A stretch of 28,200 nt of DNA from positions 1 through 28,200 of the forward strand of contig CAZCLS010000005.1 of the NCBI GenBank assembly GCA_964499565.1. The letters run 5' to 3'. This document shows positions 1 through 28,200 of the stretch, piece by piece; the stretch's first letter is position 1, and every line of letters begins with the position of its first letter. Source of the stretch: an uncultured bacterium (lineage in GTDB: Bacteria > Auribacterota > UBA3054 > CAZCLS01). The position numbers were made by a program, and so were the translations under genes. The notes under the pieces are model-generated. The model was not told the origin of the DNA, made no database searches, and was given only the letters and a program-made list of their open reading frames with translations.

Positions 1-3000
1 GGGATCGGCAGCACGGTTGGCTATCCATTCGCAATTCCGATTGAAGAACGCGTGTGCGGTAAAGGTATGTGCCCGGCCATCGTCCTGCGCCTGGAGGACG
101 GGCGCAAGCGCTGTTTCACACGCGGCTCGTTCATAGATGAGGACCAGGATTACATTCTCGACTTGTACCGCAAGGAGATGGACCGGTTGCGCACGACGCA
201 GGCGCCGCCGCCGGCAAACTTGCGGCCGGGTCTGGCCCGGGAGTGGCCGCAATGCGAGCTCTATACGCCAGGCACCTTCCGGCTTGAGAGTGACTTTTTC
301 GTTTTCGTTTCGGGCTCTCAGGGCCCCCTGGGTGAATTCAGCGCCTGGGTAAATGAAGATGACAAGGACCGTGCCAGGCAATATCGCGAGGCGACCGTGC
401 GCCATTTCGAGGACTACTGGGCCTACCTCGAGTACGCGGGACAGAGGAAACATTACTGGAATGAACCAGAATCGACCTGGTGCAAATATATAGTAAAGGT
501 TCCCGGCACGCGCAAAGACGGTTTCGGTGTAATCCCGGGTTTTGCGGGCGGCGGGCGTGGCGCCTGTGAAATCAAGGATGCATCCTGGCCGGCTTTATAT
601 CATGAATGGGCCCATGGCTCGCCCAGCAGCACCAGCCTTGGCGGCGGTGAAGTGAAGACCGACTCACATCAGCCGCTGGCCGACCCGATGTTGATCGCTA
701 AAGTCGAGCACCAGATTCAGAGGCCATTCATGAACCTTTTTCACGGTTGGTATCCGGGCGGACTCGGCTGGACAATGATGGGAGACGACCCGAACTGGGG
801 ATACGCGGCGGTTGCATCACTGAACTCGATGGGCAGCGGGGTAGCCACGCCTATGCATATGATTGCCAAATTAGGCCAGGAACGGGGCATATGGAAGGAC
901 GGTATCAGGGGTGTGGGTGATTTCTTCGGCCAGATGGGCGCCCGCTTTGCCGAATACGATTGGGAGCTGGAAGCGGAACTGCGGGCAACGTTTCCGGCGC
1001 CTGACCGGGCCTGCCTCGTTGCGCTGGATCGCAAGGCCGGGCTCTATCGCAGTGACCCGGTCGAGGCGCCCGAGCCGTTCGGGGTGAACATAGTCCGCCT
1101 GACGGCGGAACCGGATGCGAAAAAGATCAGCATTGATTTCCGCGGCCACTTCGATCCCGACACGTACAGCGACTGGCGCGCCTGCATTGTGGCCGTCGAC
1201 AAAGACGGCCGGTGCCGCTACAGTCCCCTGTGGAACAAAGGCTTGATGAATATGGATACCCGGCCAGGTGACAAGCGCTACTGGTTAACGGTGACAGCCA
1301 CACCGTACGCGCTGGCCAACGCCGGGAAAGACGGGAAATGGTATGGTTCTCCGTACGCGTACAAGTATCCCTACGACGTTCAACTCTCGGGTTGCCGGCC
1401 GGCAAGCCCGCATACTCCTGTCGGCGTAAACGAGAACATGGACCTGATCGGGCCGCGTTGGGCGAAGAATGCGATCACGGGAGGGCAGCGTAGCGGGGCG
1501 ATGGACTGGCCCCATCCGTCGGACACGCCTGAATATGCCAAAATGAAAGCCAGTCTGGAGCTGCTTCGTGAGAAGGCGCCGGATGCGATCAAAGCCCATC
1601 TGGCCGAAGGGCTTTACGGAGGACGTCCTCCCGAGCGAACGCTCATGGTATCGGCTCTGCTCACACCCCGCGCGAACTGGCTGCTGGAGAATGCGCAGGG
1701 ATCACGGCATCCGAACGGCGGCGGCTGGGTGGCTAACTCGGCGACGGTGGCGCCGACCGCCTATGTAGGTCCTGACTGCATGGTACTCGACGGCGCCACC
1801 GTACTGGACAGGGCGATCATCGAAGACTACGCGATCGTCAGCGGGGAGGATGTCGTCGTCAAGGACAACGCCAGAGTTTACGGCAAAGCTGTTGTGTGCG
1901 GTGCGGTCGAGTTGTCAGGCTATGCGCGGGTCTCGCGCAACATCATCAACCGGAACTGCACCATCGAATTCAATCCCGGCAATACCAATGTCCCATTCAA
2001 CGCTGAGATCATGGCCTCCGGCATGGTCAAACGTTCGGGTCCCGAGTTACGGCGGTTTGTATTTGATGGATTCGATCTCGGCCTGCAGGCAAATTACGAG
2101 TTCGACCAGCAGGAAGCAGTACTCATGGAGGACTACTATCAGGAGCACGGCAATGATGACACATACCTGCAGGAACTGGTGTTTTACAACGGCGTACTCT
2201 ACGGCCAGCCGGGATTCGTGAAGGATGGTGACATCAGAGCGGTGACATTCAACGGCAAAGACCAGTATGCGGAGGCCGCCGCGACCGTAGCGGATCTGGG
2301 CCAGATCACGGTGGATATCTCGCTCAAGTGGAAGGGCGGCGCTGACCAGACGATCTTCGATTTCGGGACGTCCGAGGACAATTGCTTCAAGTTGGTCCTG
2401 CCTGCATCAGGCAAGCCGGAGTTACAGGTGCGCGCCAATGGCAAGAGCGAAACGGTCGCGTCGCGCTCGCCTGTTGCGAAAGGTGTATGGGAAACCGTCC
2501 GGGTCGAAATCGATGGGAAGACGATCCGTCTATGGCTCAATAACGAGAAAGTTGCCGAGACCGAATCACGGTTCCGCGCGGCGGATGTCTATCCCGCCGG
2601 CGCCGAAAAACGGAACTTCATTGCCGCGGCCCGCGGCGGGAAGAATCCGTATTGCGGAGCGCTCGACTATGTACACATCTTCCACGTTGTGCATGAGGAC
2701 TTCAGCCGCACACCGGAGGTGCCCCTGGTTTCATCGCGCCGGATCAATCCGGACTATCCCCGGCGTTTCGCCACGAAATACGCCGACTACGAACTCAAGG
2801 CGTTGAAGCTCGTGGCGGAATACGATCAGGATGAACTGTACCGGTTCTACAAGGACTTCTATGAGCATAACACCAGGAGAAAATCGGAGCTTCAGCACTC
2901 CGATGAAGTCGATCGGCTTGAGAAGGAACTGCTGGAATTGACATCAGAGCGGGATCGCAGGAAAAAGGACATTGAAGACGAATTCGATTCCCGTCCAGAA

Positions 3001-4011
3001 ACCCCGGAAAAGCTCGCCAGGTTCACCGAGTTGAAACAGCGTTACGATACCCGCCAAATGGAGATCCGCAAGCAGTATGAACCTGAACTCGCTGAACTGA
3101 GCAAGAAAAGAAATGCTGCCAGCAGTATCGTGAAGGAGATCGAAGATACGGTGCGCGCGAAGCATGCCGCCGAGCTTGCGGCAAACCAGCTGGAGATCGA
3201 TGCATTGAGGAAGGCATACGATGCATATCTGGCTGGACTGCTCGAAAAGAATCCTGATGCCAAAAAGATTCAGGAGAAGCTGCGAGCCGCTGAGGAAGAA
3301 CTCTCGTTACTCGACCAGCAGAAAGATCACGATCGTTATGAACGTGTGGCGAAGACGATCAAAGGATTCGAGCAACATTTGCGCGAAATCAGAAACCGTT
3401 TTAATGCAGACCAGAAGGCACGTGATATACAAAACCGGCGCGAGAAAAGGGAAGCGCTGGGGCGGGCCATCATTTCCGCGGAAGCCGGCCTTGATCCCCG
3501 CTATGTCGAGGCGGCAAAAATGTTGGAGAGAAACGGTGTCATCGATCGTCGCTGGAGAGAAATCGAAAGGACCCTCATCCCGGAACACCCCGACCTTGTT
3601 GCTATCAAAAACGAGATGGATGCGATTGATCCTGTCATTGAATGCCGGAATGTGGTTGAAAAGGATTTGCGCGATATTGGGATGAAGATCAAGGCCATGG
3701 AAGCCCGGATCGGGAAAGCTCGACAGGATGCGGCGGTCGCCAACAATTGGGATGAGTTCAACGCCCTCCCGATGGGTTGGACCGAAAGGCAGCAGTATGA
3801 CGCGATAGAGCGGATGATACGAGCCCGCAAACTACCTTTTATTACCGAGTACGAAAAAAGATTCGATGCGGCATTTGCAAGCCAGCAGGCGAAATGGCAC
3901 ACGAAGGTGGACTGGGATGATCGTCTTGATTGGGAAAAAATACCGTTCCAGGAATTGTCGCCGACCGTGCAGAACTGGCTGAAAAGAACGAAACCGTATG
4001 TGTATAAGTGA
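1..4011 (+). CDS. 5'-partial giant multidomain protein: SHD1-like segment, DUF6055/Svx(AvrXca)-like HExxH metallopeptidase, left-handed beta-helix, LamG/ConA-like domain, long coiled coil, Trp-rich C-terminal motif
   Basis: Frame 1 is open from base 1 (GIGSTVGYPFA...) and aligns with the middle of the 23046-27875 paralog (GIGNAIGDPFA...), so the GTG at 52 is not the true start. Motifs: HEWAH at 601-615 plus E at 649-651; HPNGGGWVANSATVAPTAYVGP from 1708 followed by hexapeptide-like repeats; LamG-like FNGKDQYAE...WETVRVEIDG...RNFIAA (~2065-2710); E/K/R-rich helical region ~2780-3890. Confidence 0.8.
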   Translation, partial: GIGSTVGYPFAIPIEERVCGKGMCPAIVLRLEDGRKRCFTRGSFIDEDQDYILDLYRKEMDRLRTTQAPPPANLRPGLAREWPQCELYTPGTFRLESDFFVFVSGSQGPLGEFSAWVNEDDKDRARQYREATVRHFEDYWAYLEYAGQRKHYWNEPESTWCKYIVKVPGTRKDGFGVIPGFAGGGRGACEIKDASWPALYHEWAHGSPSSTSLGGGEVKTDSHQPLADPMLIAKVEHQIQRPFMNLFHGWYPGGLGWTMMGDDPNWGYAAVASLNSMGSGVATPMHMIAKLGQERGIWKDGIRGVGDFFGQMGARFAEYDWELEAELRATFPAPDRACLVALDRKAGLYRSDPVEAPEPFGVNIVRLTAEPDAKKISIDFRGHFDPDTYSDWRACIVAVDKDGRCRYSPLWNKGLMNMDTRPGDKRYWLTVTATPYALANAGKDGKWYGSPYAYKYPYDVQLSGCRPASPHTPVGVNENMDLIGPRWAKNAITGGQRSGAMDWPHPSDTPEYAKMKASLELLREKAPDAIKAHLAEGLYGGRPPERTLMVSALLTPRANWLLENAQGSRHPNGGGWVANSATVAPTAYVGPDCMVLDGATVLDRAIIEDYAIVSGEDVVVKDNARVYGKAVVCGAVELSGYARVSRNIINRNCTIEFNPGNTNVPFNAEIMASGMVKRSGPELRRFVFDGFDLGLQANYEFDQQEAVLMEDYYQEHGNDDTYLQELVFYNGVLYGQPGFVKDGDIRAVTFNGKDQYAEAAATVADLGQITVDISLKWKGGADQTIFDFGTSEDNCFKLVLPASGKPELQVRANGKSETVASRSPVAKGVWETVRVEIDGKTIRLWLNNEKVAETESRFRAADVYPAGAEKRNFIAAARGGKNPYCGALDYVHIFHVVHEDFSRTPEVPLVSSRRINPDYPRRFATKYADYELKALKLVAEYDQDELYRFYKDFYEHNTRRKSELQHSDEVDRLEKELLELTSERDRRKKDIEDEFDSRPETPEKLARFTELKQRYDTRQMEIRKQYEPELAELSKKRNAASSIVKEIEDTVRAKHAAELAANQLEIDALRKAYDAYLAGLLEKNPDAKKIQEKLRAAEEELSLLDQQKDHDRYERVAKTIKGFEQHLREIRNRFNADQKARDIQNRREKREALGRAIISAEAGLDPRYVEAAKMLERNGVIDRRWREIERTLIPEHPDLVAIKNEMDAIDPVIECRNVVEKDLRDIGMKIKAMEARIGKARQDAAVANNWDEFNALPMGWTERQQYDAIERMIRARKLPFITEYEKRFDAAFASQQAKWHTKVDWDDRLDWEKIPFQELSPTVQNWLKRTKPYVYK

Positions 4012-4085
4012 AGCTGTCCGGTATCAGGATGAATGACAGGATTGACCGGACGAATCAGACGTATAATTGTTGACAGGAATACTCT

Positions 4086-6263
4086 ATGAAAACTCACACA
4101 ACAACCCTGGCAGCGTTTGTGCTGCTTAGTGCTCAGGCCGCATTTGCAGTGGATGACGGCATCACGCTGTTGAAAACAAATTCCTTTGAGATACCAGACT
4201 CGACAGGCATCACAATGATACGTATCGAGGCTGGGCGTTTCCTCATGGGTAGTCCCCGGGAGGAGGTGGCACGCGCTGAAGACGAGGTTCAGCACGTGGT
4301 GACGATCTCAAAGCCGTTCTACATGGCCGAGACTGAGATTACCCAGGACCAGTACCTGCCGGTCATGTCGCCTGACTACAAACCGGTTTTCATCCGTGCG
4401 GCCGCGTTTGGGCACAGCCTACCCGAGGTACATCAGAACGGGCCATTCATCACGGAGTCCGCCTATCTGGGACCGACGGACAAAAACCCGATGGACGGCG
4501 TCAGTTGGCCAAAGGCGGTCGAGTTCTGCCGAATCCTCACCGGGAAAGAACGCAAGGCCGGCCGTTTGCCTGAAGGCTATGTCTACCGCCTGCCCACGGA
4601 AGCTGAATGGGAGTATGCCTGTCGCGCGGGAACCGGCGGACCGTTCAATGTCGAAGAAAACCTTACCTCCTTCTGCTGGGGTCCCGATGTAGGAAAGACG
4701 AAGTGGACCAAACCAGTCAAAGGTCGTTACATTCCCAATGCGTGGGGTCTCTACGATATGCACGGTAATGTCTATGAGTGGTGTCATGACTGGTACACAT
4801 CCTACGACACGAATGACCTGACGGATCCCGCTGGTTCGGCTGAGGGCGAACAGAAGGTTGCCCGCGGCGGATCATGGAACTCCGGCAGGCCGCAGGGTGA
4901 TGACAACAGTGACGCGGTTCGCCTGCGATATATGCGCTCCGCCTCGCGCAATCGATTTCCCCCTGATCGTCCGCTTGCCATCATCGGCTTTCGGCCGGTG
5001 CTGGCCCCGATACTGCCAAAGCAACAACAGGCCCAGCAGCCTGCCTTTTCCCCGAAGAACGAACCGCAGACGGCACGCCAGGAGCGGCGCCTGACATTCG
5101 ACGAGTACGCCGATAAGATGAAAGCCGGTTGGGTGGGACAGATGGCGGGTGTCGGCTGGGGCGGCCCGACCGAGTTTCGCTATAAGGGCCTCATCATCCC
5201 GGAAGATAAGATGCCCCAATGGCAGCCGGAAAAAGTCAACCAGTTCCAGCAGGATGACATCTATGTTGAGATGACGTTCCTGCAAACGCTTGAGAAACAC
5301 GGGCTGGACTGTTCGATCCGCCAGGCGGGCATTGACTTCGCTAACAGCGGCTATAATCTGTGGCATGCCAACCGGGCCGGCCGCGACAACCTGCGGCGCG
5401 GCATCGCTCCGCCCGACTCGGGCCACCCGCAGTTCAACAAGCATGCCGATGACATCGACTATCAGATCGAAGCTGACTACAGCGGTCTGATCGCGCCCGG
5501 CATGCCGCAACTGGTGATAGACCTTGGAGAAAAATTCGGACGGCTGATGAACTACGGCGACGGATTGTACGCCGGGCAGTTTGTCGGCGGCATGTATGCC
5601 GAAGCGTTCTTCGAGAACGACATGGTCAAGATCGTCGAGGCGGGCCTGCGCTGTATCCCCGCGCAAAGCCAGTATGCCGGGATGGTCCGCGACATGCTTG
5701 CCTGGTATGAAAAAAATCCCGACGATTGGCAAAAAACCTGGCAGTGGTGTGAAGACAAATACCACAAGAACTCCGAGTACTCCCACGGCTTGTGCAGCAA
5801 GTCGGGCGGTGAGAACGCTTTCAGTATCGACGCCAAACTGAATGGGGCGTATATCATTATGGGCCTGCTGTACGGAAAAGGCGATCCGGACAGGACAATC
5901 ATTATATCGACCCGCTGCGGTCAGGACTCGGACTGCAATCCGTCGAACGCCGGCGGGATTTTGTTTACCACGATCGGTTTCTCGAACCTGCCCGGGCGGT
6001 TCGTATCGGAACTTGCTCCGGAAAAGACTTTCAGCCATACGCCGTATGATTTTCCAACCTTGATCGAGGTTTCGAAAAAACTGGTGCGGCAGGCCGTCGC
6101 GCGCAGCGGCGGGCGCATCGAGAAAAGCGCCGACGGAGGCGAAGTGCTGGTCCTGCCGGACATCGCCCCAAAGCCGAGTTCCTTCGAGCCCGTCTACCAG
6201 CCCGGCCCGATTGCCGGAAGCACTTTTACAGCCGGGGAGCAGGCCGAAATCAGCAAACAATGA
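4086..6263 (+). CDS. Exported FGE-sulfatase (SUMF1)-fold protein fused to an ADP-ribosylglycohydrolase-family domain
   Basis: Sec-type signal (MKTHTTTLAAFVLLSAQAAFA). FGE-fold motifs: FLMGSP, RLPTEAEWEYACRAG, NAWGLYDMHGNVYEWC, RGGSW, IGFRP. Q/P-rich linker ~5010-5090. ARH-like motifs: AGWVGQMAGVGWG, QDDIY (DD at 5253-5258), CGQDSDCN (DSDC at 5925-5936). AGGA lies upstream of the ATG. Confidence 0.85.
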   Translation: MKTHTTTLAAFVLLSAQAAFAVDDGITLLKTNSFEIPDSTGITMIRIEAGRFLMGSPREEVARAEDEVQHVVTISKPFYMAETEITQDQYLPVMSPDYKPVFIRAAAFGHSLPEVHQNGPFITESAYLGPTDKNPMDGVSWPKAVEFCRILTGKERKAGRLPEGYVYRLPTEAEWEYACRAGTGGPFNVEENLTSFCWGPDVGKTKWTKPVKGRYIPNAWGLYDMHGNVYEWCHDWYTSYDTNDLTDPAGSAEGEQKVARGGSWNSGRPQGDDNSDAVRLRYMRSASRNRFPPDRPLAIIGFRPVLAPILPKQQQAQQPAFSPKNEPQTARQERRLTFDEYADKMKAGWVGQMAGVGWGGPTEFRYKGLIIPEDKMPQWQPEKVNQFQQDDIYVEMTFLQTLEKHGLDCSIRQAGIDFANSGYNLWHANRAGRDNLRRGIAPPDSGHPQFNKHADDIDYQIEADYSGLIAPGMPQLVIDLGEKFGRLMNYGDGLYAGQFVGGMYAEAFFENDMVKIVEAGLRCIPAQSQYAGMVRDMLAWYEKNPDDWQKTWQWCEDKYHKNSEYSHGLCSKSGGENAFSIDAKLNGAYIIMGLLYGKGDPDRTIIISTRCGQDSDCNPSNAGGILFTTIGFSNLPGRFVSELAPEKTFSHTPYDFPTLIEVSKKLVRQAVARSGGRIEKSADGGEVLVLPDIAPKPSSFEPVYQPGPIAGSTFTAGEQAEISKQ

Positions 6264-6315
6264 TTCACCACAGATTAGTATTCATTTTCGATAACCATAT
6301 CAGAAAGAGGTTCCC

Positions 6316-8019
6316 ATGAAAACTATTTTACGAAGTGCAGTCTGTCTCTTGTTCGTATTGTTAGCTTGTGCAGGCACAGCAACAGTCCGTGCCGACGAAG
6401 CACCTGAATTGAAGGATCCCTTGAAGATCAAGATTACGGGAAAATACATTGTCTTTCCCGTCTCGAACAAGGGCAAACGCGGCCGCATGACAATTGTCGT
6501 CGATGACTCGCTCGTTCATAATCTCGACTGCGACTTCCCTTCCGATACGAACGCTGTCAGCTGGTGGACCTACCTCGACATGGAAGAGTACGTTGGCAAG
6601 ACCGCCATGGTCGCCGCGGATGCCGCACCGGAAATTCGCGCGATGATTACGTCCGGCGATACCATTCCCCACCTGCAGCCGCTGTACGACGAAGCACTGC
6701 GGCCCCAGTTCCATATGAGTCAGATGCGTGGCTGGAACAACGATCCCAACGGCATGTGCTACTATGACGGCACCTACCACTTCTTCTGGCAGTGCAACCC
6801 AGCCGGACGCGGCTGGGCCAATATGTACTGGGGTCACGCGACCAGCCCCGACATGATCCATTGGACCGAGCAAAAACGTGCGTTGCGGCCTTTCGGTGAT
6901 ACTGTCGACAATCGCCATCCCTCGATGGCCGTCAAAAGCTGTTTCTCAGGCAGCGGAAACGTTGATGTGAACAACACCGCCGGCTGGCAAACGGGCAAAG
7001 AAAAAACCATCGTCCTGGCGTTCACCGATACCGGCTGCGGCGAATCACTTGCTTACTCTACCGATGGTGGTAAAACTTTTACCTACTATAAAGGTAACCC
7101 GGTCATCAAGCACTCGGGCCGCGACCCGAAGTTGATCTGGTATGAGCCGGGCAAGCACTGGGTTATCGCCGTTTTCGACAATGACGAGGAACATGGTAAG
7201 AATGTTGCCATGTATAGCAGCACGAACCTTACCGAGTGGACCCGTGAGAGCAATGTCCCGGGATACTACGAATGTCCGGAACTTTTTGAATTGCCGGTCG
7301 ATGGCAATCCGGCGAATAAAAAATGGGTGATTTACGCTGCCGATGCTCAGTACGCCATTGGAACCTTCGATGGCAAGACCTTCACGCCGGAACACGAGGG
7401 CAAACACCGCGTCCACTGTGGCGCCTACTATGCCTCACAATGCTTCAGCCACTCCCCCGACGGCCGCGTTGTTCAAATCGGCTGGGCTCGGATTAACATG
7501 CCCGACATGCCGTTCAACCAAACCTTCACCGTGCCGGCCAACCTTACGCTGCGCACGACGGAAGACGGCATCCGGTTGTTCGTCACACCGATCAAGGAAC
7601 TTGAACAGCTCCGCAAGCCGGATCCCCAGACAGTCGAGAATCTGCGCCTGACGGCAACTGTTCCGTCACTTACGCTGGACGCCACCGGACAACTCTTCGA
7701 CATTATAGTTACCCTTAAGCGCGGAACCGCCACGAAAGCAGTGCTGCGGTTCGGCGAAAACACAGCCACCTATGATTTCACTGCTCAAAAGCTCGATGAA
7801 ATGCCGCTGCCTATGAAGGACGACACAGTACCATTACGCCTGCTTGTTGACAGACCCATGTACGAGCTGGTCGGCGGCGGCGGCGCCTGCTACAAGACCA
7901 GCGGCCGCAAGGATATGGGTAAGCATCTAGGCACGATCTCTCTGACCGCTGAAGACGGTTCTCTCACGGTTGAATCGCTCAAAGTATTCGAAATGACATC
8001 GGCCTGGAAGAAGGAGTGA
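6316..8019 (+). CDS. Exported glycoside hydrolase family 32 (beta-fructofuranosidase/levanase-like)
   Basis: All three GH32 catalytic motifs are present: WNNDPNG (from 6733), RDP (7120-7128) and ECP (from 7270). Also WGHATS and YASQ motifs. N-terminal signal peptide ending in VRA. Confidence 0.9.
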   Translation: MKTILRSAVCLLFVLLACAGTATVRADEAPELKDPLKIKITGKYIVFPVSNKGKRGRMTIVVDDSLVHNLDCDFPSDTNAVSWWTYLDMEEYVGKTAMVAADAAPEIRAMITSGDTIPHLQPLYDEALRPQFHMSQMRGWNNDPNGMCYYDGTYHFFWQCNPAGRGWANMYWGHATSPDMIHWTEQKRALRPFGDTVDNRHPSMAVKSCFSGSGNVDVNNTAGWQTGKEKTIVLAFTDTGCGESLAYSTDGGKTFTYYKGNPVIKHSGRDPKLIWYEPGKHWVIAVFDNDEEHGKNVAMYSSTNLTEWTRESNVPGYYECPELFELPVDGNPANKKWVIYAADAQYAIGTFDGKTFTPEHEGKHRVHCGAYYASQCFSHSPDGRVVQIGWARINMPDMPFNQTFTVPANLTLRTTEDGIRLFVTPIKELEQLRKPDPQTVENLRLTATVPSLTLDATGQLFDIIVTLKRGTATKAVLRFGENTATYDFTAQKLDEMPLPMKDDTVPLRLLVDRPMYELVGGGGACYKTSGRKDMGKHLGTISLTAEDGSLTVESLKVFEMTSAWKKE

Positions 8020-8055
8020 GCTTGACGGAAAAGCAATGACTGATAAGGAATCACC

Positions 8056-11178: not shown

Positions 11179-11230
11179 ACACTAAAACTATCAGAAGTGA
11201 ATATAACCCGGTAGAACTATAACAATCGAC

Positions 11231-12628: not shown

Positions 12629-12687
12629 CCCGGCACGCAGGACGCTGCTCGCGCCGGACGTACAATAGTAACCAAGAGAACTGTACT

Positions 12688-14109: not shown

Positions 14110-14150
14110 ATGATAGTGTAACTACTAACCTCAGCGCAGGAAAACGACGA

Positions 14151-16865: not shown

Positions 16866-16899
16866 CCGATTACTTTGTTCACCAGGGGAGTATATAATC

Positions 16900-19320: not shown

Positions 19321-19322
19321 AT

Positions 19323-20255
19323 ATGCCAATTACTGAATATGTGAATCGGTTAATCGCGGCTCCGCTCACCGGATATCATCCGGATGGCTCGGTGAACCTG
19401 CTGGTGGTGCCCCGGTATACGGAAATGCTCTATGCCAATGGCGTCGCAGGCGCGTTCGTTAACGGGACTACCGGCGAAGGTATGTCTCTGACAGTCAAAG
19501 AGCGCTGCGACCTGGCTGAACGTTGGGTCGCCGCAGCCCCGGACGGCTTCAAGATTATCATTCACGTGGGTCATACATGCCAGGCCGAGAGCCAGGCAAT
19601 GACCGCTCATGCCATGCAAATCGGCGCACATGCCATAGCGGAAATCGGTCCCGTATTCTTCAGGCCTGCTACGGTTGGCGCATTGGTCGATTACTGCGCC
19701 GTCACTGCCGCCTCAGCTCCCGAATTGCCATACTATTATTACCACATGCCCTCAATGAACCAGGTTCAGTTCCCGATGATTGAATTCCTTAAGGGAGCAT
19801 CTTCCGCCATGCCAAACCTGGCTGGTATCAAGTACACGTTTGAAGACCTGGCCGACTACGAACGCTGCCGAACATTTGGAGACGGAAAATACGATATTCT
19901 TTTCGGCCGTGATGAAATCCTTCTCGATGCTCTTAAACTCGGTGCTCAGGGCGCAGTGGGTAGTACCTATAACGCCTTTGCAGCACTCTACCATCAGTTG
20001 ATTAAAGCCTTTCATGCCGGTAACAGTGATGAGGCCCGTCGCCTGCAGGCCATATCGGCAAATATCTGCCGGTTGCTTAGTGCTACCGGCGGATTCGGCT
20101 CCGCCTTGAAGTCTGCCATGAATATGATCGGCCTGGACCTGGGCACAATGCGCCGGCCGCAGTTGAACATTTCACATGATGCCGCAAAGCAGCTTGAAAC
20201 GTCTCTCCGTCAAATCGGTGCGCTCGAATTTTTGAATCAATTACCGCATTCATAG
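19323..20255 (+). CDS. nanA: N-acetylneuraminate lyase-like aldolase (DHDPS/NanA family)
   Basis: NGTTGEG (from 19461), YYYHMP, and GIKYT with the Schiff-base Lys at 19830-19832; FGRDE. It resembles Bacteroidota-type NanA as I recall it and lies next to a NanM-SSS gene. Start is ATG 19323 or the overlapping GTG 19317. Confidence 0.75.
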   Translation: MPITEYVNRLIAAPLTGYHPDGSVNLLVVPRYTEMLYANGVAGAFVNGTTGEGMSLTVKERCDLAERWVAAAPDGFKIIIHVGHTCQAESQAMTAHAMQIGAHAIAEIGPVFFRPATVGALVDYCAVTAASAPELPYYYYHMPSMNQVQFPMIEFLKGASSAMPNLAGIKYTFEDLADYERCRTFGDGKYDILFGRDEILLDALKLGAQGAVGSTYNAFAALYHQLIKAFHAGNSDEARRLQAISANICRLLSATGGFGSALKSAMNMIGLDLGTMRRPQLNISHDAAKQLETSLRQIGALEFLNQLPHS

Positions 20256-20258
20256 AAT

Positions 20259-23000
20259 ATGAAAAATATAATCATACTTCTAATCACACTTCTCCTTCTG
20301 GCAAGCCCGAATGTGTTTGCTCAACTCGTCTGGAGCGAAGCGCCGGAGATCCCTCCCGCACCCGGCAAAACAAACCAGCCGGGCCTGGCCGGCGCTTTCT
20401 CCGGTGTACATAATAACGCATTGATCGTCGCCGGCGGCGCCAATTTTCCTGATGGCTTGCCGTGGTCTACTTTGCCTGACGGTTCCAGCCCGAAGAAAAT
20501 CTACAACCGTGATATCTACGTGCTGCTTAAAAATGACACCGGGTTCGTTTGGAATATCGCCGATGTAAAGCTGCCCGCTGGTTACAGCTACGGTGTCTCG
20601 ATACCGACTGACGCCGGCCTGCTGTGTATCGGCGGCGAGTGGCGCGAATACGATAACGGTAAAGCCCATACGTTCAAATCTGACAAGGTATTTCTTATCA
20701 AGCACCTTGGGCAGGGTCTCATCGAAATCGATCTCACCAACATGCCCCCGCTTCCGAAGGCGGTCTCTGCCATGGCCGGCGCGAAAGTCGGTGATGCGAT
20801 CTTCGTTGCCGGTGGAAATGACGGCAGCGGTGAAACCACGTTCTTCTGGAAACAGGACCTTTCCAAAAAAGACAGGCCCGATGCGTTCAAATGGGAAGCT
20901 CTTGCTCCCTGGCCGGGCCCGCCACGCTCGCATCTTGTTGCCGCTGCCCAGAACGATGGAAAAAACGACTGCTTCTACATCTTCAGCGGCCGGTACAATG
21001 ATCCCGATACGGGTTGGATGTTTCTCACAGACAGTTATAAGTATAATCCCCAGTCCGACACGTGGACAAAGCTGGCTGATGTCGGAACAAACCTGTCCGA
21101 TAAAAAACCAGTCTGTATTATGGCCGCAACAGCTGTCAAGCTGGGCTCTCATCATATCGCACTATTCGGCGGCGCGCCGGGCGACCGCTTCCTCACAGTT
21201 GAGCAGGAACTGCCTAAAGAGATCAAAGCTCTTCAGGATGCGGGCAAAACGGACGAAGCCGAAACACTCACAGCAAAAAAATGGGAACTCTATGCCAACC
21301 ATCCCGGGTTCAGCCGGAATATTCTGGTTTACCATACCATTACCGATACCTGGACGGTCATGGGCAAGGTGCCGGAATCGGTTGTGGGCGGATTGCCCGT
21401 CGGTTCTCATGTGACAGCAACAGCTGTGCAGTGGGATGATGATATTGTCATCCCCAGCGGTGAAGTGCGGCCCGGCGTACGCTCACCCAAAGTCTGGGTG
21501 GCAACGCCTGTGCACAGAAGTGGTTTTGGCATGAGTAACTATATCGTCCTGGGCATGTACCTGGCCATCCTGATCGCAATCGGATTCTACTTCTCAAAAA
21601 GGGAGAGCAGTACCGACGATTTCTTCAAAGCCGGCGGCAGAATCCCCTGGTGGGCGGCCGGCCTGAGTATCTTCGGTACCCAGCTCAGTGCCATTACCTT
21701 CATGGCGATCCCCGCTAAAAGTTTTGCCACCGACTGGACCTGGTTCATATTGAATATGACGATCATCCTTGTCGCGCCCCTGATTGTTTTTCTTTTCCTT
21801 CCATTCTATAGAAGATTGAACGTTACAACGGCGTACGAGTATATTGAAAAACGGTTCAATGTCGTCGTGCGCCTGGTCGCCAGCTTCATGTTTATTCTGT
21901 TCCAGTTTGCCCGCATAGGCATCGTGCTCTTCCTCCCGTCTATTGCCCTTTCAGTTGTTACTGGTATCGATATCAGGATCTGTATCGCCGTGATGGGCCT
22001 GCTCTCTATCGCCTACACCACGATGGGCGGCATTGAGGCAGTCATCTGGACCGACGTTATCCAGGTCGCCGTCCTGCTGAGCGGCGCCATCCTGGTGCTC
22101 TTCCTGATCGCCAATTCTGTCGAAGGCGGCTTCGGCGGTATTGTACACATCGCATCAGATTCAGAGAAACTGCGCTTGTTCAATTTTCATTTCAGCCTCA
22201 AAAGTCCCACCCTGTGGGTGCTGGTCCTTGGCGGTGTGGGTGCCAATATCATCTCGTATGGCAGTGACCAGGCGGTCATTCAACGCTACCTGACTACTAA
22301 AGATGAAAAAGACGCCGCCCGGGGGATTTGGACTAACGCCGTGCTAACCATTCCTGCCAGTATCATCTTCTTCGGCCTCGGTACCGCCCTCTTCGCTTTC
22401 TTTAAGTCATACCCCGAAACTCTCAGCGCAACGATGGGAAAGACCGATGCCATCTTCCCCTGGTTCATTGTCACTCAACTGCCGGCCGGTGTCGCGGGTC
22501 TTCTGATTGCCGGTGTGTTCGCCGCGGCCATGTCGAGCCTCGACAGCAGTATGAACAGCGTCGCTACTGCTTTTACTACTGATTTCTTCAGACGCTTCTC
22601 TCCTTCAGTTGAAGACCGTACATGCCTGTCCGTTGCCAGGTGGTCTACCATCATCATCGGACTCTGCGGTATCGCCATTGCCCTCGCTATGGCTACCTGG
22701 AACATCAACTCCCTCTGGGAAGAATTCTCCAAATATATCGGCCTCTTCGGCGGCGGATTGGGCGGCCTTTTCATTCTCGCTATCTTCACTCGCAGGGCCA
22801 ATTGGCAGGGAGCTATGATCGGTTTGATCGCCAGCGCTGCAATCCAGTTTTTCCTGAAAACTAACAACACAGTCCACGGCGTCCTCTTTGCCGCTACGGG
22901 CATGATCTCCTGTTTCGTTATCGGTTATCTCGCAAGCCTGGTTATACCGGGTAAAAATAAAAATCTACATGGTTTAACTCTGTTTACACTTACAAAATAA
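20259..23000 (+). CDS. Fusion of a NanM-like Kelch mutarotase domain (N-terminal, exported) and a SiaT-like sodium:solute symporter (C-terminal)
   Basis: Signal peptide ending in VFA. Kelch/NanM motifs: GLAGAFSG, VAGGANFP, YGVS, IPSGEVRPGVRSP (~20325-21510). SSS motifs: DDFFKAGGRIPWWAAGLSIFGTQLSAITFMAIPAK, GGIEAVIWTDVIQ, DQAVIQRYLT, FAAAMSSLDSSMNS (~21520-23000). The frame is continuous with no stop. Confidence 0.88.
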   Translation: MKNIIILLITLLLLASPNVFAQLVWSEAPEIPPAPGKTNQPGLAGAFSGVHNNALIVAGGANFPDGLPWSTLPDGSSPKKIYNRDIYVLLKNDTGFVWNIADVKLPAGYSYGVSIPTDAGLLCIGGEWREYDNGKAHTFKSDKVFLIKHLGQGLIEIDLTNMPPLPKAVSAMAGAKVGDAIFVAGGNDGSGETTFFWKQDLSKKDRPDAFKWEALAPWPGPPRSHLVAAAQNDGKNDCFYIFSGRYNDPDTGWMFLTDSYKYNPQSDTWTKLADVGTNLSDKKPVCIMAATAVKLGSHHIALFGGAPGDRFLTVEQELPKEIKALQDAGKTDEAETLTAKKWELYANHPGFSRNILVYHTITDTWTVMGKVPESVVGGLPVGSHVTATAVQWDDDIVIPSGEVRPGVRSPKVWVATPVHRSGFGMSNYIVLGMYLAILIAIGFYFSKRESSTDDFFKAGGRIPWWAAGLSIFGTQLSAITFMAIPAKSFATDWTWFILNMTIILVAPLIVFLFLPFYRRLNVTTAYEYIEKRFNVVVRLVASFMFILFQFARIGIVLFLPSIALSVVTGIDIRICIAVMGLLSIAYTTMGGIEAVIWTDVIQVAVLLSGAILVLFLIANSVEGGFGGIVHIASDSEKLRLFNFHFSLKSPTLWVLVLGGVGANIISYGSDQAVIQRYLTTKDEKDAARGIWTNAVLTIPASIIFFGLGTALFAFFKSYPETLSATMGKTDAIFPWFIVTQLPAGVAGLLIAGVFAAAMSSLDSSMNSVATAFTTDFFRRFSPSVEDRTCLSVARWSTIIIGLCGIAIALAMATWNINSLWEEFSKYIGLFGGGLGGLFILAIFTRRANWQGAMIGLIASAAIQFFLKTNNTVHGVLFAATGMISCFVIGYLASLVIPGKNKNLHGLTLFTLTK

Positions 23001-23031
23001 TATCGTAATTATACCTGAATAATCCGCACTT

Positions 23032-23036
23032 AGGAG
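23032..23036 (+). promoter_or_regulatory. Shine-Dalgarno site for the 23046 gene
   Basis: AGGAG lies 9 nt upstream of the ATG at 23046, inside an AT-rich spacer. Confidence 0.6.
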
Positions 23037-23045
23037 TATAGCCTA

Positions 23046-26000
23046 ATGAACATTCCGATTTTTTGCGGCTTGCTGACAATTCTGATCGGCACGACTAGTG
23101 TGCAGTCGTATGATTTCTTCGACCTTTCACGTTATCCTGAGGGTGGAAAACTTAAACCGGGTGTCGAACTGTATTCCGTAAAGAAAGCAGGCGGGGCGCC
23201 CGAGAAGTATGTCCGCCGGGTAGTGCACTGGTGGCCTCGTAAGGGCGTCGATTTCGTTGACATCGAGACGGGAATGATCCCGCGCGAGTGGACCCTGAAG
23301 CCCGGCATATTCGACGACGGGCAACCCCCGCCGCTTCACCTTGATTGGAAAACATTCGAACACGACAAACTGGATATGCCGGTCGACGTCGGCGACAAGT
23401 ATATCAGGCAGATCCAGGGTTATCTGCATCCACCGAAAGACGGCGATTATATCTTCAAGATTGCTGCCGACGATATGGGTGTTTTCTTTCTCAGTACCAA
23501 TGATTCTCCTGACAACATCAGGCTGGTCTGTTATTCCCGGGCAAGTTCGCCCCGTAATAATTTCACCCGGTACGATGGACAGATTTCCGTGCCGGTCCCG
23601 CTCAAGAAAGGCCGCACGTATTATTATGAGGTTCTGCAGAAGGACGAAGGCTCAAGCGATAATGCCATGGTAGTGTGGGAGACCGCCGGATTGGAAGAGG
23701 AGGTTATAGGCGGTTCGGCCATATCCACCCTGGAGGGTGTGCCCGGGATAGTCATCGAGCGACGGGCGTCTCTGCTCCAGGATGTGAACACCGGCATTCG
23801 CCCCAGGCGCGAGCCACAATCATTCAAGGCGCACCTGATCGGATTTGACGGCATAGGCAACGCCATCGGCGACCCGTTCGCCGGAGAGGATTTCTTCGAA
23901 CCGAGTGTGATCCTTCGCATGGCGGACGGCAGGAAGAGGGTTTTCAGGTCCAAGAGCTTCTGCCAGGCTGATCGTGAATTCATCCTCGATATCTACCTTA
24001 AGGAAATGAAGCGCATCCAGGGCACTCTGGACAAGACGGTCTACGGAATCAAGCCGCAGACTCTCAAAGAGTATCCCGGCGGCACACCGATCGGTGAGCC
24101 GGGATCGCTCCTGCTGCAGTCGGACCACTTTGCTGTACCCTCTGGAAGCCAGGCCTCCGGTCCCAATGACCGTTGGCTCAATCCCGAAAAGCCGGAGATC
24201 GCTGCCCGTTGCCGGGAAAGTGTCTTCACCATGTTCGAACACATGCACGCCTACCTGGAATACGGCGGTCATCTGATGCCTTACTGGGACCGCCCCGAGC
24301 AGTACAAATACGAGGTTCATGTGGGCGGTACGATCCTCAATGGACATATATCAAAAGGCGGTGGCGCTGGGGGCGGCTACGGTGCTCAGGGCATGGGCTG
24401 GCTGGGCGCGAATCCCGGCGGGTTCGGTCACGAATATGGCCATGGCATGTCGATCCAGTGGCGCGTGGGCAATGGCGAAATTCTAGCCCAGTCTATGATG
24501 GAACTTACCGATAACCGCTGCACCTCGTATGATCATAACATCAATGTACCGTGGCGCAACTGCGTGCATGCCGAGTATAACGCCTGTCTGTTCTACAGGG
24601 GGATCGGCTACGACCCCAACTGGGGGCTGCTCGCGGTTACCGCCATGCCGGCCTCGGCCGAGGAACCCAGCATCTTCCAGACTCTGGCGCGCCTTGGCCA
24701 ACAGCGCGGCATGTTTAAAGACGGTATCCGCGGAATGGGCGATATGGTGGGTGACTACAGCGCGCGTCTGCCGGAATTAGACACGCCAAACCAGGAACCT
24801 GTACGCAAAGCCTATTTCGCAGCCGCGCGTAACTACCTTGAGGCAATCGATCCGGCCAGGGGCGTCTACAGGATTCCCTGGGATGAAGCGCCCGAACCTT
24901 TCGGCGCTAACATTATCCGGCTTGTGCCGGAAGAGGGCGGGAAGACGATTGAAGTCGATTTCCAGGGGTATCATGATCCTGCGGTCTACAGCGACTGGCG
25001 TGCCTGTATCGTGGCGGTGGATCATGAAGGTAATGCGCGCTACAGTGATCTGTGGAATAAGGGCCGCATGACAATGGTACGCCGGGAAGGTGATCGGCGT
25101 TATTGGCTGACCGTGGCGGCTACACCGAGTGCGCTGCTGTATCCATGCGACATGACAGTGTACCAGGGCATCTATGCTCCCCGTTACCCATGGCAGGTGA
25201 CACTTCGCGGCGCCGTGCCGGGTATGCCGCATCGGCAGCGTTTAGACCTGGATGATGTCCACGCGGCTTATGGCACCTTCTTGTTGAGCGGACTGGTTCC
25301 GGTCATTCCAAACACAGAAGCGGGCAAACAGTTCCTGGCGGATACACAGTCTTTTGTGGACGAGTTGCGCCAGCGCCTCGGTCAGGCAACCCTCCCGGAA
25401 AAACTCGCGTACGGGCGGTTGATCAGACCCGCTGCGGCCGCCGTCGCGGCCATGCAAGGCGCCCCGCACCCCAATGGCGGCGGCTGGGTGGCCGCCAGTG
25501 CCGAAGCGGCGCTGACCGCCTATGTCGGACCGCAGGCTATGGTGTTGGATAATGCCAAAGTGCTGGATCATGCTATTATTGAAGATTTCGCGGTCATCAA
25601 AGACCGTGCGGTCATATCAGGGAATGCCCGCATCAATGGTCAGGCTGTGATATCCGCAGACACTCGGCTGACTGGATATCAGCGTGCCTGGATGCCGCTG
25701 CAGCTCACAGCCGACACGGAAGCGCCGGAACTCACAACACGCCGGATGGAAAACCTGGACGAGAACGGCCTCTGGGCCAACTACGCCATGGACCAGCCTG
25801 AAGCCGTTATGCTCGAGGATTGGTATCGTCAGCATGACGGCGCCAGCTTCCGCGAGTTCTTTTGCAGCCTTATGAACGGGTATCTGTATGGGCGGCCCGA
25901 TTTCGTCACCGAAGGCTCCAACGCAGGATTTGCTTTTGACGGCAAGACCCAGTACGCGGAACTCAACCGCCACATCGCGGATCTATCTCAGATTACTGTG

Positions 26001-27875
26001 GACATGGTGGTCAAATGGCAGGGAAACGGCAAACAGACGCTGCTGGATTTCGGATCCGGTGAAGACAACCATTTCATGCTGACCACCGACGGCAAAGACG
26101 GAAAGCTCGCGTTCGTTGCTATCGTCGATGGCAAGAACGTTGCCGGCCTGACATCCTCGATCGCCCTTGCCCGGGACGCCTGGACACGAGTGCGCCTGGA
26201 GATCGACGGCAGGCAGATAGCCTTGTGGATCGATGACAAGCCGGTGGGTGAAGCCGCATCCACTTTCCAGCCCGCCCACGTGTTCAAAGCTGGCGTGTTG
26301 CAACGCAACTTTATCGCCGCAGGATTTGACGGCAGGGATCTATTCAAGGGCATCTTCGACAACGTGGTGGTCTATCATAAAGTGCACGGCGAAGAGTTTA
26401 CTAATCTGCCCGCACCATTTTGCGATGCGCCGCGGCGGCCTGATAAGGGATTTGCCATCGGCGTTCTCAGGAGTATGGGGGCAACCCCGTTCGAGCAGGA
26501 TGACAGGAAGAACCGTCTTGCCGAAAGACTCCTTCAGGAATGGAACAGCCGTGGTGGTCGCGCACTTACACAACTGATGGAGCTCAAGTTCCGTGTTCCG
26601 GAATACCTGGATGCGGTCGAAAAGGCCAAAGCCTTTGAGCAATGGAAGAAAGAGAGCACTGAGCAATTCCAGCAGGAATTTGACACGCGTGAGAAGGCCC
26701 TGGGTTTAACGGATCAAATTACCGATTTGAAGCAGAGGATCGCTTCTCTGGAACTAAAGTCCATTGAGTTACGGAAACAGAAGGCCGTGGATGCTCCGCC
26801 TTCCAAGCCAACCAGGAAAATTGTTGAACTGCAGGAAATGATTGAGCCGCTTGAGGTACAGCTTGCTGATCTCCAGAAGATAGAGGCGGACGCCCGTGCC
26901 GCCGTTGCGGCGATGTCGGAGAACAAAGCCGCTCAGGAAGAGATCACCCTCCTCGAAGAAGAGATAAAGCCCCTGGCCGAAATGGCCCGCAGCCGTCTCA
27001 AAGAACTGAATGATGGCGCGAACGATGACGCAGACATGAAGGCCTGGATTCGCGCTCAGCAGCACATCCCGTATTCAAAGGAAGACAAACGCGTGGTCAG
27101 GGCCATAGGTGAGTTGCGCGGAAACGTGAGGGACGCCCTCCTGTACATGATGAAGGAGGAACTTACGGCACGGGACGCCGAGTTCAGAAAGTGGTCGGAA
27201 CTGACAGAGAGAGTGGAAGACCTGAAACGCGAAGAACTCTATCGTCTGTATGATTATCTGTTGAAGAATACTGAGCATCCCGGGCTGCTCATTCAGAACC
27301 GATGGGATCAAGGCGAGCTTGCCGAAGTAAGCAAAGCACTGAATGAAGCGAAACAGCAACTCCAGAACGAGCAGCGGAATGCTGAGCAGAACAATGGATT
27401 GAGCGTTGAGGACAACATCCTGCTACAGAAGTGCAAGGATCAGTTGAACGAACGGGAGACCGATCTGCGCGAGGCCCGGGCCACGTACGTGGACGAGAAG
27501 CTGCGTGAAGCGGGCCTGATCGAGAAAGAGCAGGCGGTAAACAACCAACTCGAGGAAGCCACGAAGATAGTCGCAAGCACATACCACGCCGAGTACCACG
27601 TCTTGTGTTCATTCATCCGCCAGAACTTCCACGGCTTCTACAATGGGAGGATCAGCGAGTATATCGACCGGTATGCCCAGAAAGTTGTCGGCGGCGTTTC
27701 CCTGCGTGACAAACTTGACCAGGTAGAAAAGATCGAAGAACTGTACCTGCCTGAAAACTGGAAAACCAGTGTTGACCAATGGGATTGGCGCACTGTATGG
27801 GAGAAAGACGGCAGTATCGAAAATTTGCCTTTGACGAGGAAATGGTTGAAACGTGTCCGCGGGAATGCAGAATGA
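23046..27875 (+). CDS. Giant exported multidomain protein: PA14, SHD1-like, DUF6055/Svx-like HExxH metallopeptidase, left-handed beta-helix, LamG, long coiled coil, Trp-rich C-terminal motif; paralog of 1-4011
   Basis: Signal peptide (MNIPIFCGLLTILIGTTSVQS). PA14-like IQGYLHPPKDGDYIFKIAADD...LKKGRTYYYEVLQKD (~23340-23730). HEYGH at 24429-24443 plus E at 24477-24479. HPNGGGWVA from 25467. LamG-like FDGKTQYAE...RNFIAAG (~25770-26400). Helical E/K/L/Q-rich region ~26490-27750. Confidence 0.82.
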   Translation: MNIPIFCGLLTILIGTTSVQSYDFFDLSRYPEGGKLKPGVELYSVKKAGGAPEKYVRRVVHWWPRKGVDFVDIETGMIPREWTLKPGIFDDGQPPPLHLDWKTFEHDKLDMPVDVGDKYIRQIQGYLHPPKDGDYIFKIAADDMGVFFLSTNDSPDNIRLVCYSRASSPRNNFTRYDGQISVPVPLKKGRTYYYEVLQKDEGSSDNAMVVWETAGLEEEVIGGSAISTLEGVPGIVIERRASLLQDVNTGIRPRREPQSFKAHLIGFDGIGNAIGDPFAGEDFFEPSVILRMADGRKRVFRSKSFCQADREFILDIYLKEMKRIQGTLDKTVYGIKPQTLKEYPGGTPIGEPGSLLLQSDHFAVPSGSQASGPNDRWLNPEKPEIAARCRESVFTMFEHMHAYLEYGGHLMPYWDRPEQYKYEVHVGGTILNGHISKGGGAGGGYGAQGMGWLGANPGGFGHEYGHGMSIQWRVGNGEILAQSMMELTDNRCTSYDHNINVPWRNCVHAEYNACLFYRGIGYDPNWGLLAVTAMPASAEEPSIFQTLARLGQQRGMFKDGIRGMGDMVGDYSARLPELDTPNQEPVRKAYFAAARNYLEAIDPARGVYRIPWDEAPEPFGANIIRLVPEEGGKTIEVDFQGYHDPAVYSDWRACIVAVDHEGNARYSDLWNKGRMTMVRREGDRRYWLTVAATPSALLYPCDMTVYQGIYAPRYPWQVTLRGAVPGMPHRQRLDLDDVHAAYGTFLLSGLVPVIPNTEAGKQFLADTQSFVDELRQRLGQATLPEKLAYGRLIRPAAAAVAAMQGAPHPNGGGWVAASAEAALTAYVGPQAMVLDNAKVLDHAIIEDFAVIKDRAVISGNARINGQAVISADTRLTGYQRAWMPLQLTADTEAPELTTRRMENLDENGLWANYAMDQPEAVMLEDWYRQHDGASFREFFCSLMNGYLYGRPDFVTEGSNAGFAFDGKTQYAELNRHIADLSQITVDMVVKWQGNGKQTLLDFGSGEDNHFMLTTDGKDGKLAFVAIVDGKNVAGLTSSIALARDAWTRVRLEIDGRQIALWIDDKPVGEAASTFQPAHVFKAGVLQRNFIAAGFDGRDLFKGIFDNVVVYHKVHGEEFTNLPAPFCDAPRRPDKGFAIGVLRSMGATPFEQDDRKNRLAERLLQEWNSRGGRALTQLMELKFRVPEYLDAVEKAKAFEQWKKESTEQFQQEFDTREKALGLTDQITDLKQRIASLELKSIELRKQKAVDAPPSKPTRKIVELQEMIEPLEVQLADLQKIEADARAAVAAMSENKAAQEEITLLEEEIKPLAEMARSRLKELNDGANDDADMKAWIRAQQHIPYSKEDKRVVRAIGELRGNVRDALLYMMKEELTARDAEFRKWSELTERVEDLKREELYRLYDYLLKNTEHPGLLIQNRWDQGELAEVSKALNEAKQQLQNEQRNAEQNNGLSVEDNILLQKCKDQLNERETDLREARATYVDEKLREAGLIEKEQAVNNQLEEATKIVASTYHAEYHVLCSFIRQNFHGFYNGRISEYIDRYAQKVVGGVSLRDKLDQVEKIEELYLPENWKTSVDQWDWRTVWEKDGSIENLPLTRKWLKRVRGNAE

Positions 27876-27937
27876 CTGTTCAGAACCGACTGACTCGAAC
27901 GATTAGTATACGTGACCATAACATTAGGACCACTATC

Positions 27938-28200
27938 ATGAAGACTTTACTTTGGATACTGCCGACGCTCATGTTACTGCCGGCCTACACCACATTTTCC
28001 ACGAATGACGTGGCTTCAATGAAGCAGTTCAGCGCTAAAGAATGGACAGTCCCGGAGATTGAGATGCAGATGAAATTAATCCCTGCGGGGAGCTTCACTA
28101 TGGGTAGCCCTACAGGCGAAATCTGCCGGCGGAACGACGAAGTACAACATCCGGTTGTTATCTCCAAACCCTTCTATATGGCCGCCTTCGAATGCCGTCA
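27938..28200 (+). CDS. 3'-partial exported FGE-sulfatase-fold protein; paralog of 4086-6263 (absent from the ORF track)
   Basis: Manual translation: MKTLLWILPTLMLLPAYTTFS...MKLIPAGSFTMGSPTGEICRRNDEVQHPVVISKPFYMAAFECR. This matches RIEAGRFLMGSPREEVARAEDEVQHVVTISKPFYMAETE in the 4086 gene. AGGA lies upstream; there is no stop before the window end. Confidence 0.85.
   Translation, partial: MKTLLWILPTLMLLPAYTTFSTNDVASMKQFSAKEWTVPEIEMQMKLIPAGSFTMGSPTGEICRRNDEVQHPVVISKPFYMAAFECR

Follow-up and report, generated by a model that had tools for sequence, protein, structure and literature searches.

What is the function of two neighboring genes that occur twice, in the same order, on one contig of an uncultured bacterium of the phylum Auribacterota (GenBank assembly GCA_964499565.1, contig CAZCLS010000005.1)? 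The window analyzed here is this entire contig (C5 in our numbering), 28.2 kb of a metagenome-assembled genome (MAG) that comprises 4.3 Mb in 632 contigs and is 79% complete. In both pairs, encoded on the plus strand like every real gene in the window, a gene for a giant multidomain protein is followed by one for an exported protein with the fold of the formylglycine-generating enzyme (FGE). The first pair consists of giantA (1..4011), represented by its C-terminal 1336 amino acids, the contig starting within the gene, and fgeA (4086..6263), separated by a spacer of 74 nucleotides (4012..4085); the second pair consists of giantB (23046-27875), a complete protein of 1609 amino acids delineated with Pfam, NCBIfam and AlphaFold2 (AF2), and fgeB (27938..28200), separated by 62 nucleotides (27876..27937). 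No terminator-like hairpin is present in either spacer, and fgeB, cut by the contig end, is a fragment of 87 amino acids that covers the signal peptide and the start of a partner-type FGE-fold domain. The order, spacers and coordinates reported in the initial annotation hold, and so does the paralogy of both members: the giants are 35% identical over 1065 amino acids (E = 8e-166), the FGE-fold proteins 43% identical over 86 amino acids (E = 8e-17), and a shared DNA motif of 29 nucleotides recurs at positions 1165 and 24987, with a chance expectation of 0. The pair is a conserved unit of two secreted proteins, the genes of which are not adjacent by chance. The function we favor, to which we would give about an even chance, is that the giant is a secreted peptidase directed at glycoproteins, whereas the FGE-fold protein is its cognate accessory subunit, without catalytic activity of its own, which would dock to the giant and add binding capacity or recruit enzymes.

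How widely is the arrangement conserved? In a scan of species-representative genomes, 279 stretches were confirmed and 74 loci kept, which, together with the present genome, yielded 100 giants, the context being visible for 88 and hidden for 12. An FGE-fold gene lies directly downstream of 51 giants and directly upstream of 16, in both cases on the same strand, and is fused within the open reading frame (ORF) of one, so that 68 of the 88 giants with visible context have a directly adjacent partner on either side or fused. In five more cases, an FGE-fold gene is located within 3.5 kb, and none was seen for the remaining 15 (both sides visible in 10, the upstream side unseen in 5). The genes downstream of the partner are heterogeneous, with no conserved third gene. 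The old, conserved unit proposed from the two copies in the window is thus real and more widespread than the window alone indicates. In one related locus (L016), a BNR_2 sialidase-like gene is inserted between the giant and its FGE-fold partner.

An obvious objection is that the adjacency is meaningless, with two abundant families brought together by chance or by hitch-hiking. Both families are indeed abundant: the present genome contains 24 FGE-domain and 20 DUF6055 matches (DUF6055 being the Pfam family detected in the giants), and one of five whole MAGs that we searched has more than 100 other FGE-domain matches. However, the members that form pairs are sharply delimited. In phmmer searches of the present genome, giantB retrieved 7 giant-type genes above 450 bits, with all other DUF6055 proteins below 160 bits, and fgeA retrieved the neighbors of the giants at 155-367 bits, with the other FGE-domain proteins at 108 bits or less. 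Of the 7 giants for which sequence beyond the 3′ end is available, 6 are followed by an FGE gene, the exception being on contig C109, and the MAG contains at least 6 units, a copy count that the initial annotation had called for. In the FGE-domain tree, all giant-adjacent copies belong to a single clade (71 rows; Shimodaira-Hasegawa-like support 99), and the other FGE-domain proteins of this genome fall outside it. In the reverse direction, a partner profile recovered from the five whole MAGs 39 genes with scores of at least 345 bits, whereas the match ranked after them reaches no more than 186; a giant is located immediately 5′ of 30 of the 39 and 3′ of 6, and among the 3 scored as alone, one sits behind a truncated giant and one at a contig edge. 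In the same MAGs, each with 5 to 17 giants, a partner is present for 36 of the 47. With ~17 giants among ~4500 genes, the chance expectation is below 1% per gene, and the MAG with more than 100 other FGE-domain matches is still paired, so that FGE abundance, the explanation that the initial annotation had named as fatal to its proposal, fails. Given, in addition, the recurrent fusions and a co-divergence that survives shuffling within genomes, both described below, chance adjacency is refuted as far as comparative data can refute it, and we regard its probability as negligible.

The members of the pairs also diverged together. Patristic distances for 60 giant-partner pairs are strongly correlated (Mantel Spearman 0.83). 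When partners are shuffled over all pairs, the correlation averages 0.00 and never exceeds 0.21; with shuffling confined to single genomes, it averages 0.35 and peaks at 0.56, and 0 of 1000 shuffles reach 0.83. Paralogous units have therefore diverged as units, and the trees are congruent, as anticipated in the initial annotation; this pattern shows long, stable linkage. On the giant tree, partner presence is clustered (13 changes vs 25 in shuffles), and pairs are found on both sides of the midpoint root; a clade of 9 giants has an FGE clade of its own, sited upstream rather than downstream, and a clade of 15 has none. The giant and the FGE-fold domain are encoded in a single ORF in a Kiritimatiellia MAG (complete, 1904 amino acids), an Akkermansiaceae MAG and a Verrucomicrobiales MAG; in these fusions, the signal peptide of the FGE-fold protein is lost, and a diverged version of the tail motif of the giant is kept before a linker of ~70 amino acids. 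Furthermore, lake-water metatranscriptome libraries contain most of the window, including, in two of the libraries, contigs that extend from giantA through the spacer into fgeA (X3 record 1, 1-4204; X4 record 12, 3844-4926), which fits co-transcription of the two genes. Together, the fusions and the RNA contigs bridging the spacer argue that the giant and its partner act together, in line with the original proposal.

What kind of protein is the giant? GiantB consists of a signal peptide, a conserved N-domain (~20-86), PA14 (120-207), an Svx-like gluzincin domain with a beta-sandwich (256-755), a beta-helix (~800-880), LamG (965-1113), a helical region (1131-~1560) and a Trp-rich end motif (nucleotides 27759-27875); the part of giantA in the window shows the same succession of Svx-like gluzincin domain, beta-sandwich, left-handed beta-helix, LamG, helical tail and Trp-rich end motif. 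Pfam detects Laminin_G_3 in both giants (residues 751-896 of giantA) and PA14 in giantB. The zinc site of giantB (H462, E463, H466, E478; 24429..24479, plus strand) is invariant in family alignments of 15 and of 65 members, and an HExxH motif in giantA (601..651, plus strand), with its Glu 11 positions further along, aligns to it with the same spacing. The DUF6055 scores (68.9 bits for giantA, residues 307-467, and 74.7 bits for giantB) exceed the Pfam cut-off of 27, and the NCBIfam Svx/AvrXca model (NF040510) matches giantB with 115.8 bits (E = 2e-33). Because only the last 40% of the DUF6055 profile is matched (positions 252-415 of 417) and the NCBIfam score is far under the equivalog cut-off of 625, the giant is, judging from the profiles, a distant relative of Svx, not its orthologue.

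The AF2 model of giantB residues 256-755 (predicted local distance difference test, pLDDT, 89; predicted template modeling score, pTM, 0.88) comprises a gluzincin catalytic domain and a beta-sandwich, with lugdulysin (M30) as the best solved match (Z 10.7), followed by M1, M4, M36 and M9 peptidases; when the core was searched with Foldseek against the PDB and Swiss-Prot models, the only matches, to peptidases and beta-sandwich proteins, were weak. A left-handed beta-helix after the gluzincin domain, as in Svx, is indicated by an invariant HPNGGGWV motif and by low-scoring matches to Hexapep, LpxA and LpxD (residues 814-875); giantA, too, has a faint hexapeptide-repeat match. The last 479 residues (1131-1609) are modeled as all helical, with helices of 15-35 residues (pLDDT 89, pTM 0.75), and match generic long-helix proteins only in the same databases; the coiled coil noted initially corresponds to this all-helical region, which the model does not show to be a single long stalk. 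In the end motif, W442, W449 and W470 are nearly invariant across the family, and 53 of 55 giants have signal-like N-termini. Most likely, the giant is a zinc endopeptidase that cuts heavily glycosylated extracellular proteins.

The closest precedent for such an activity is Svx/AvrXca of Pectobacterium, Dickeya and Xanthomonas (NF040510, DUF6055), a secreted protein with the same order of an HExxH motif with a downstream Glu and a left-handed beta-helix (“acyltransferase-like”). The giants differ from Svx in being 2-4 times longer, owing to the addition of the N-domain, PA14 or GH127, the beta-sandwich, LamG, a helical region of ~450 amino acids and the Trp-rich end, and in being multi-copy within a genome. 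Svx of Pectobacterium is a secreted gluzincin that cleaves O-glycosylated extensins, and its beta-helix domain is required for the recognition of extensin arabinosides (PMC10815107, PMC13164431); O-glycoprotein peptidase activity has been demonstrated for Pectobacterium Svx only (PMC13164431). One paper assigns DUF6055 proteins to MEROPS M106 (PMC11241649). The abstracts, outlines and term searches that we covered of the literature on Svx mention no FGE-fold partner, and searches on DUF6055, Svx/AvrXca, and FGE-sulfatase combined with terms for the Planctomycetota-Verrucomicrobiota-Chlamydiota (PVC) group found nothing on the pairing, in agreement with the initial view that no such system had been described. 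The family to which the peptidase core belongs is a known one; within the reach of these searches, we found no published description of the architecture or of the obligate FGE-fold partner.

Mucin-type O-glycopeptidases (M60-like BT4244 and AM0627, ZmpA/ZmpB) offer a second comparison, in that they also combine a gluzincin fold with glycan-recognising modules and occur in glycan-utilisation gene sets. The structural matches of the giant to these proteins are weak (Z 4.5-5.8; 4.8 for BT4244 and 5.8 for Akkermansia AM0627), below those to M30 and M1 and no better than those to M1, M4 or M9, and there is no Pfam M60-like match. We know of no M60-like, ZmpA or ZmpB glycopeptidase described with an FGE-fold partner.

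The partner shares the FGE-sulfatase fold with FGE/SUMF1. FgeA consists of a signal peptide, an FGE-fold domain (~4212-4994), a Q/P-rich linker and an ARH-family domain (~5127-5996), with Pfam scores of 139.9 bits for FGE-sulfatase (PF03781, residues 43-303) and 95.1 bits for ADP_ribosyl_GH; the fgeB fragment scores 17.4 bits with FGE-sulfatase. In contrast to FGE/SUMF1, the catalytic cysteine pair is missing: fgeA has no Cys from RGGSW to the end of the domain, and in an alignment of 46 partners, the stretch after RGGS has no column with a conserved second Cys, so the partner is not an FGE. Instead, the partners carry an insertion of their own after RGG and the motif HPFLRSASRY...GFRVVLAP. 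Signal-like N-termini were found in 55 of 60 partners; these are AxA-type, lipobox-like sequences occurring in only 3 of the 60, and judging from this, the partners are not lipoproteins. By sequence, the nearest solved relatives are PvdO (5hha, E = 1e-17), Treponema denticola Tvp1 (2y3c) and PorK (9mzu), with FGE structures at E = 1e-12. Like PorK, GldK and GldJ, the partner looks like a repurposed, non-catalytic member of the fold that works with a protein partner; it differs from these proteins in being a non-lipoprotein, in lacking a type IX secretion context and in scoring far below the cut-offs (GldK, 98.2 bits vs 350; GldJ, 52.9 bits vs 458).

Could the partner nevertheless be an enzyme with a different active site, comparable to EgtB, OvoA or PvdO, that modifies the giant or its glycoprotein substrate? 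Other members of the FGE fold are enzymes, the nearest solved relative is PvdO, and the partner domain (~300 amino acids, mean column identity 44%) contains many invariant charged and aromatic residues. However, most of these residues belong to motifs common to the entire FGE fold, the FGE cysteine pair is absent, the scores with the PvdO, EgtB, SenA and OvoA models are far under the cut-offs, and no redox-partner or cofactor gene is conserved beside the pair in the loci compared. We therefore consider an enzymatic role quite improbable, and a non-catalytic accessory subunit that binds the giant would be the more natural interpretation.

Additional domains fused to partner-type proteins hint at what such a subunit might do. 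The exported ARH-family domain of fgeA (residues 348-637) was found in none of the 46 other giant-adjacent partners, and in a Kiritimatiellia MAG (L057/L088, 618-3641), an FGE domain of the partner type is instead joined to a SASA sialate O-acetylesterase and GH2_N. As an observation beyond the giants, a sister clade of the partner FGE adjoins a two-haem family of ~1000-1200 amino acids with two CXXCH motifs (C250, 1243-5789; L025, L031, L047, L078 and others), which is also found in about 16 of the 74 loci with giants and is absent from the window; the FGE fold seems to have entered here into another pairing, with a large secreted protein other than the giant.

Under the function we favor, each pair would be one copy of a conserved, co-diversifying two-gene unit. 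The giant would be an Svx-related zinc endopeptidase extended by PA14, LamG, the helical region and the Trp-rich end, and, in giantA, by GH127; the partner would dock to its own giant, probably near the C-terminal end, and would add ligand binding or bring along glycan-trimming enzymes, such as the ARH-family domain in fgeA or the sialate esterase elsewhere. Paralogous units are found in different glycan-utilisation gene sets, and their substrates probably differ. The glycopeptidase with a lectin-like partner envisaged in the initial annotation is close to this scheme and stands as the best reading, although it goes no further than inference.

A related but broader possibility is that the FGE-fold protein is a dedicated docking subunit of a surface-held or secreted multi-enzyme machine degrading glycoproteins, that is, a socket for the ARH-family domain, the sialate esterase and, via the sister clade, the two-haem family. 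We consider this version rather unlikely. If it were true, the repurposed FGE fold would be a general partner-and-handle assembly system of PVC bacteria, following a logic similar to that of cohesin and dockerin, and the substrates would be algal cell-wall or mucin-like proteins.

A different role for the partner, outside substrate handling, also has to be considered, namely, that of a cognate maturation factor, chaperone or inhibitor, acting as a propeptide in trans, holding the peptidase inactive or aiding its folding during export. Periplasmic inhibitors encoded beside secreted metalloproteases provide a model. The partner is small and exported, is linked to the peptidase in a strict one-to-one manner and co-diverges with it; the fold binds an extended peptide in true FGE; and fusion at the end of the enzyme is a propeptide-like arrangement. 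However, the fusion of the partner domain to glycan-active domains (ARH; SASA with GH2_N) suits an adaptor or binding module better, the partner is well conserved and, at ~300 amino acids, large for an inhibitor, some giants have no partner at all, and the pairing of the sister FGE clade with the unrelated two-haem family implies that the role of the fold is not bound to peptidases. On balance, this explanation appears unlikely, although it deserves serious consideration.

Several observations weigh against the accessory subunit of a glycoprotein-directed peptidase that we favor. The fold matches of the peptidase domain are at a family-distant level only. About a sixth of the giants, including the clade of 15 and the copy on C109, have no nearby FGE gene, so that the peptidase can do without the partner. 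The congruence of the trees is read as stable linkage rather than contact because linked genes duplicate and are transferred together, and co-divergence alone does not prove contact. Contigs from RNA libraries may include DNA and cannot prove a single transcript. No docking handle emerged from a comparison of 66 FGE-linked with 10 FGE-less giants, the columns kept in the former and not in the latter being 4 scattered positions that form no motif. Finally, complex prediction for the last 110 amino acids of giantA with the FGE domain of fgeA, both with alignments, gave scores of 0.41, 0.01 and 0.00 (median 0.01; mark 0.32); although counted here among the unfavorable points, this prediction covered the tail of giantA only and speaks neither for nor against binding. 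The Trp-rich end motif had been considered as a candidate FGE-binding site and was rejected: it is present in FGE-less giants too, and phmmer does not detect it in the FGE-linked giants of C86 and C232.

The glycan context of the units is consistent with a role in glycoprotein degradation. Glycan-utilisation gene sets contain the units at dispersed sites, frequently as tandem copies; 14 of the 74 related loci have GH127-like genes, 16 have sulfatases, and at least 8 giants adjoin a BNR sialidase-like gene (C86, 9473-10684; C232, 558-1730; L016, L017, L030, L047, L048, L056). GH127 is a family of beta-L-arabinofuranosidases that trim extensin-type arabinosides, although other specificities exist, and the GH127 domain of giantA thus fits the Svx precedent. 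Taken together with the known action of Svx on extensins, this fusion makes hydroxyproline-rich glycoproteins from algae or plants the first candidate substrates.

Such a context also raises the question of whether the pair is a PVC counterpart of SusC/SusD, capturing glycans at the surface and handing them over for import, as the initial annotation suggested. The pairs do lie within glycan-utilisation gene sets, and the present genome, at 79% completeness, has no match to the SusD family. However, neither protein has a membrane barrel, a TonB box or a SusD fold (no barrel or SusD-fold match in Pfam or NCBIfam for either giant or partner), the peptidase site of the giant is intact, and the transporter encoded in the window is an ordinary inner-membrane fusion protein of the sodium:solute symporter (SSS) type. 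We consider a Sus-like role very improbable. In lakes, seas and guts, PVC-type bacteria play a major part in the breakdown of sulfated and otherwise complex glycans, and little is known of their attack on glycoprotein cores. The unit is large and multi-copy, is represented in RNA libraries and has been retained in Planctomycetota, Verrucomicrobiota, Kiritimatiellia and Lentisphaeria, and it is therefore probably important for the degradation of glycoproteins by these bacteria. It is, moreover, a further clear example supporting the emerging view that the FGE fold has been recruited many times for non-catalytic partners of secreted proteins of large size.

Metagenomes contain hundreds of members of the giant family, which, where named, are labeled Planctomycetota, Phycisphaerae, Kiritimatiellia, Verrucomicrobia or Sumerlaeota, and the close relatives of the giants described here all come from PVC-type MAGs. 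In the phylum of the present MAG (79 species genomes, 41 of high quality), none of the other 78 encodes a giant at E ≤ 1e-60, nor do the relatives from the order of the window. The giants in this MAG hence result from either horizontal transfer or a binning error. The giant-bearing contigs fall inside the composition range of the bin; the GC content of the window is 55.7%, and that of the bin is 50.9 ± 2.5%.

Between the two pairs, Pfam identifies, all on the plus strand, a GH32-like gene (6316-8019), a double FAD_oxidored gene (8056-11178), a single FAD_oxidored gene (11231-12628), a sulfatase with a twin-arginine signal (12625-14109), a DUF5695 gene (14106-16865), a GH2 gene (~16865-19320), a DHDPS-family lyase (19317-20255) and a NanM-SSS fusion (20259-23000). 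These families are rare or absent beside the giants of the 74 related loci; because the cargo varies among relatives, the bracketing of a glycan-catabolic cargo, presented initially as part of the system, holds for this contig only and is not a property of the module. In the NanM-SSS ORF, which lies directly 3′ of the NanA-like lyase of the DHDPS family and directly 5′ of giantB, a NanM-like Kelch mutarotase (residues 163-415) precedes a sodium:solute symporter (455-858). The double FAD_oxidored protein (1040 amino acids, 230 bits) has two FAD-binding Rossmann starts (residues ~50 and ~405), and the gene at 11231-12628 is its single-domain paralogue. In the four RNA libraries, contig coverage is dense over 1-14600, patchy beyond ~14.6 kb and sparse or absent over the DUF5695, GH2 and lyase genes; the drop at 14600-20000 may be a transcription boundary, and contigs of this kind cannot rank expression.

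The units at the window edges continue on other contigs. Nucleotides 1-55 of the window overlap exactly with the end of the reverse complement of C427 (locus L090, same assembly), and the joined frame is open over 2257 amino acids. GiantA thus extends beyond the contig edge: its N-terminal ~920 amino acids, comprising a signal peptide, GH127, GH127M, DUF4986, PA14 and the conserved N-domain, sit on C427. Upstream of giantA, C427 encodes the end of a third giant (its final 87 amino acids) and, on the minus strand at 2867-3835, another partner-type FGE-fold protein, which makes at least three units in tandem. At the other end, C289 begins 1-2 codons beyond the fgeB cut, judging from the family consensus, with an FGE fragment that belongs to the partner clade and, within it, to the same sub-clade as the partners of the nearest relatives of giantB. 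Although no nucleotide overlap was found between the window end (28120-28200) and C289, this contig probably continues fgeB and would add a gene for a protein of 352 amino acids, a sulfatase and a GH127-like gene. An exact overlap of 55 nucleotides also joins C226 to C207, yielding a complete giant of 1431 amino acids, signal peptide included. Two GH127-like genes accompany it, one downstream on the contig of its N-terminal piece and the other behind its FGE partner.

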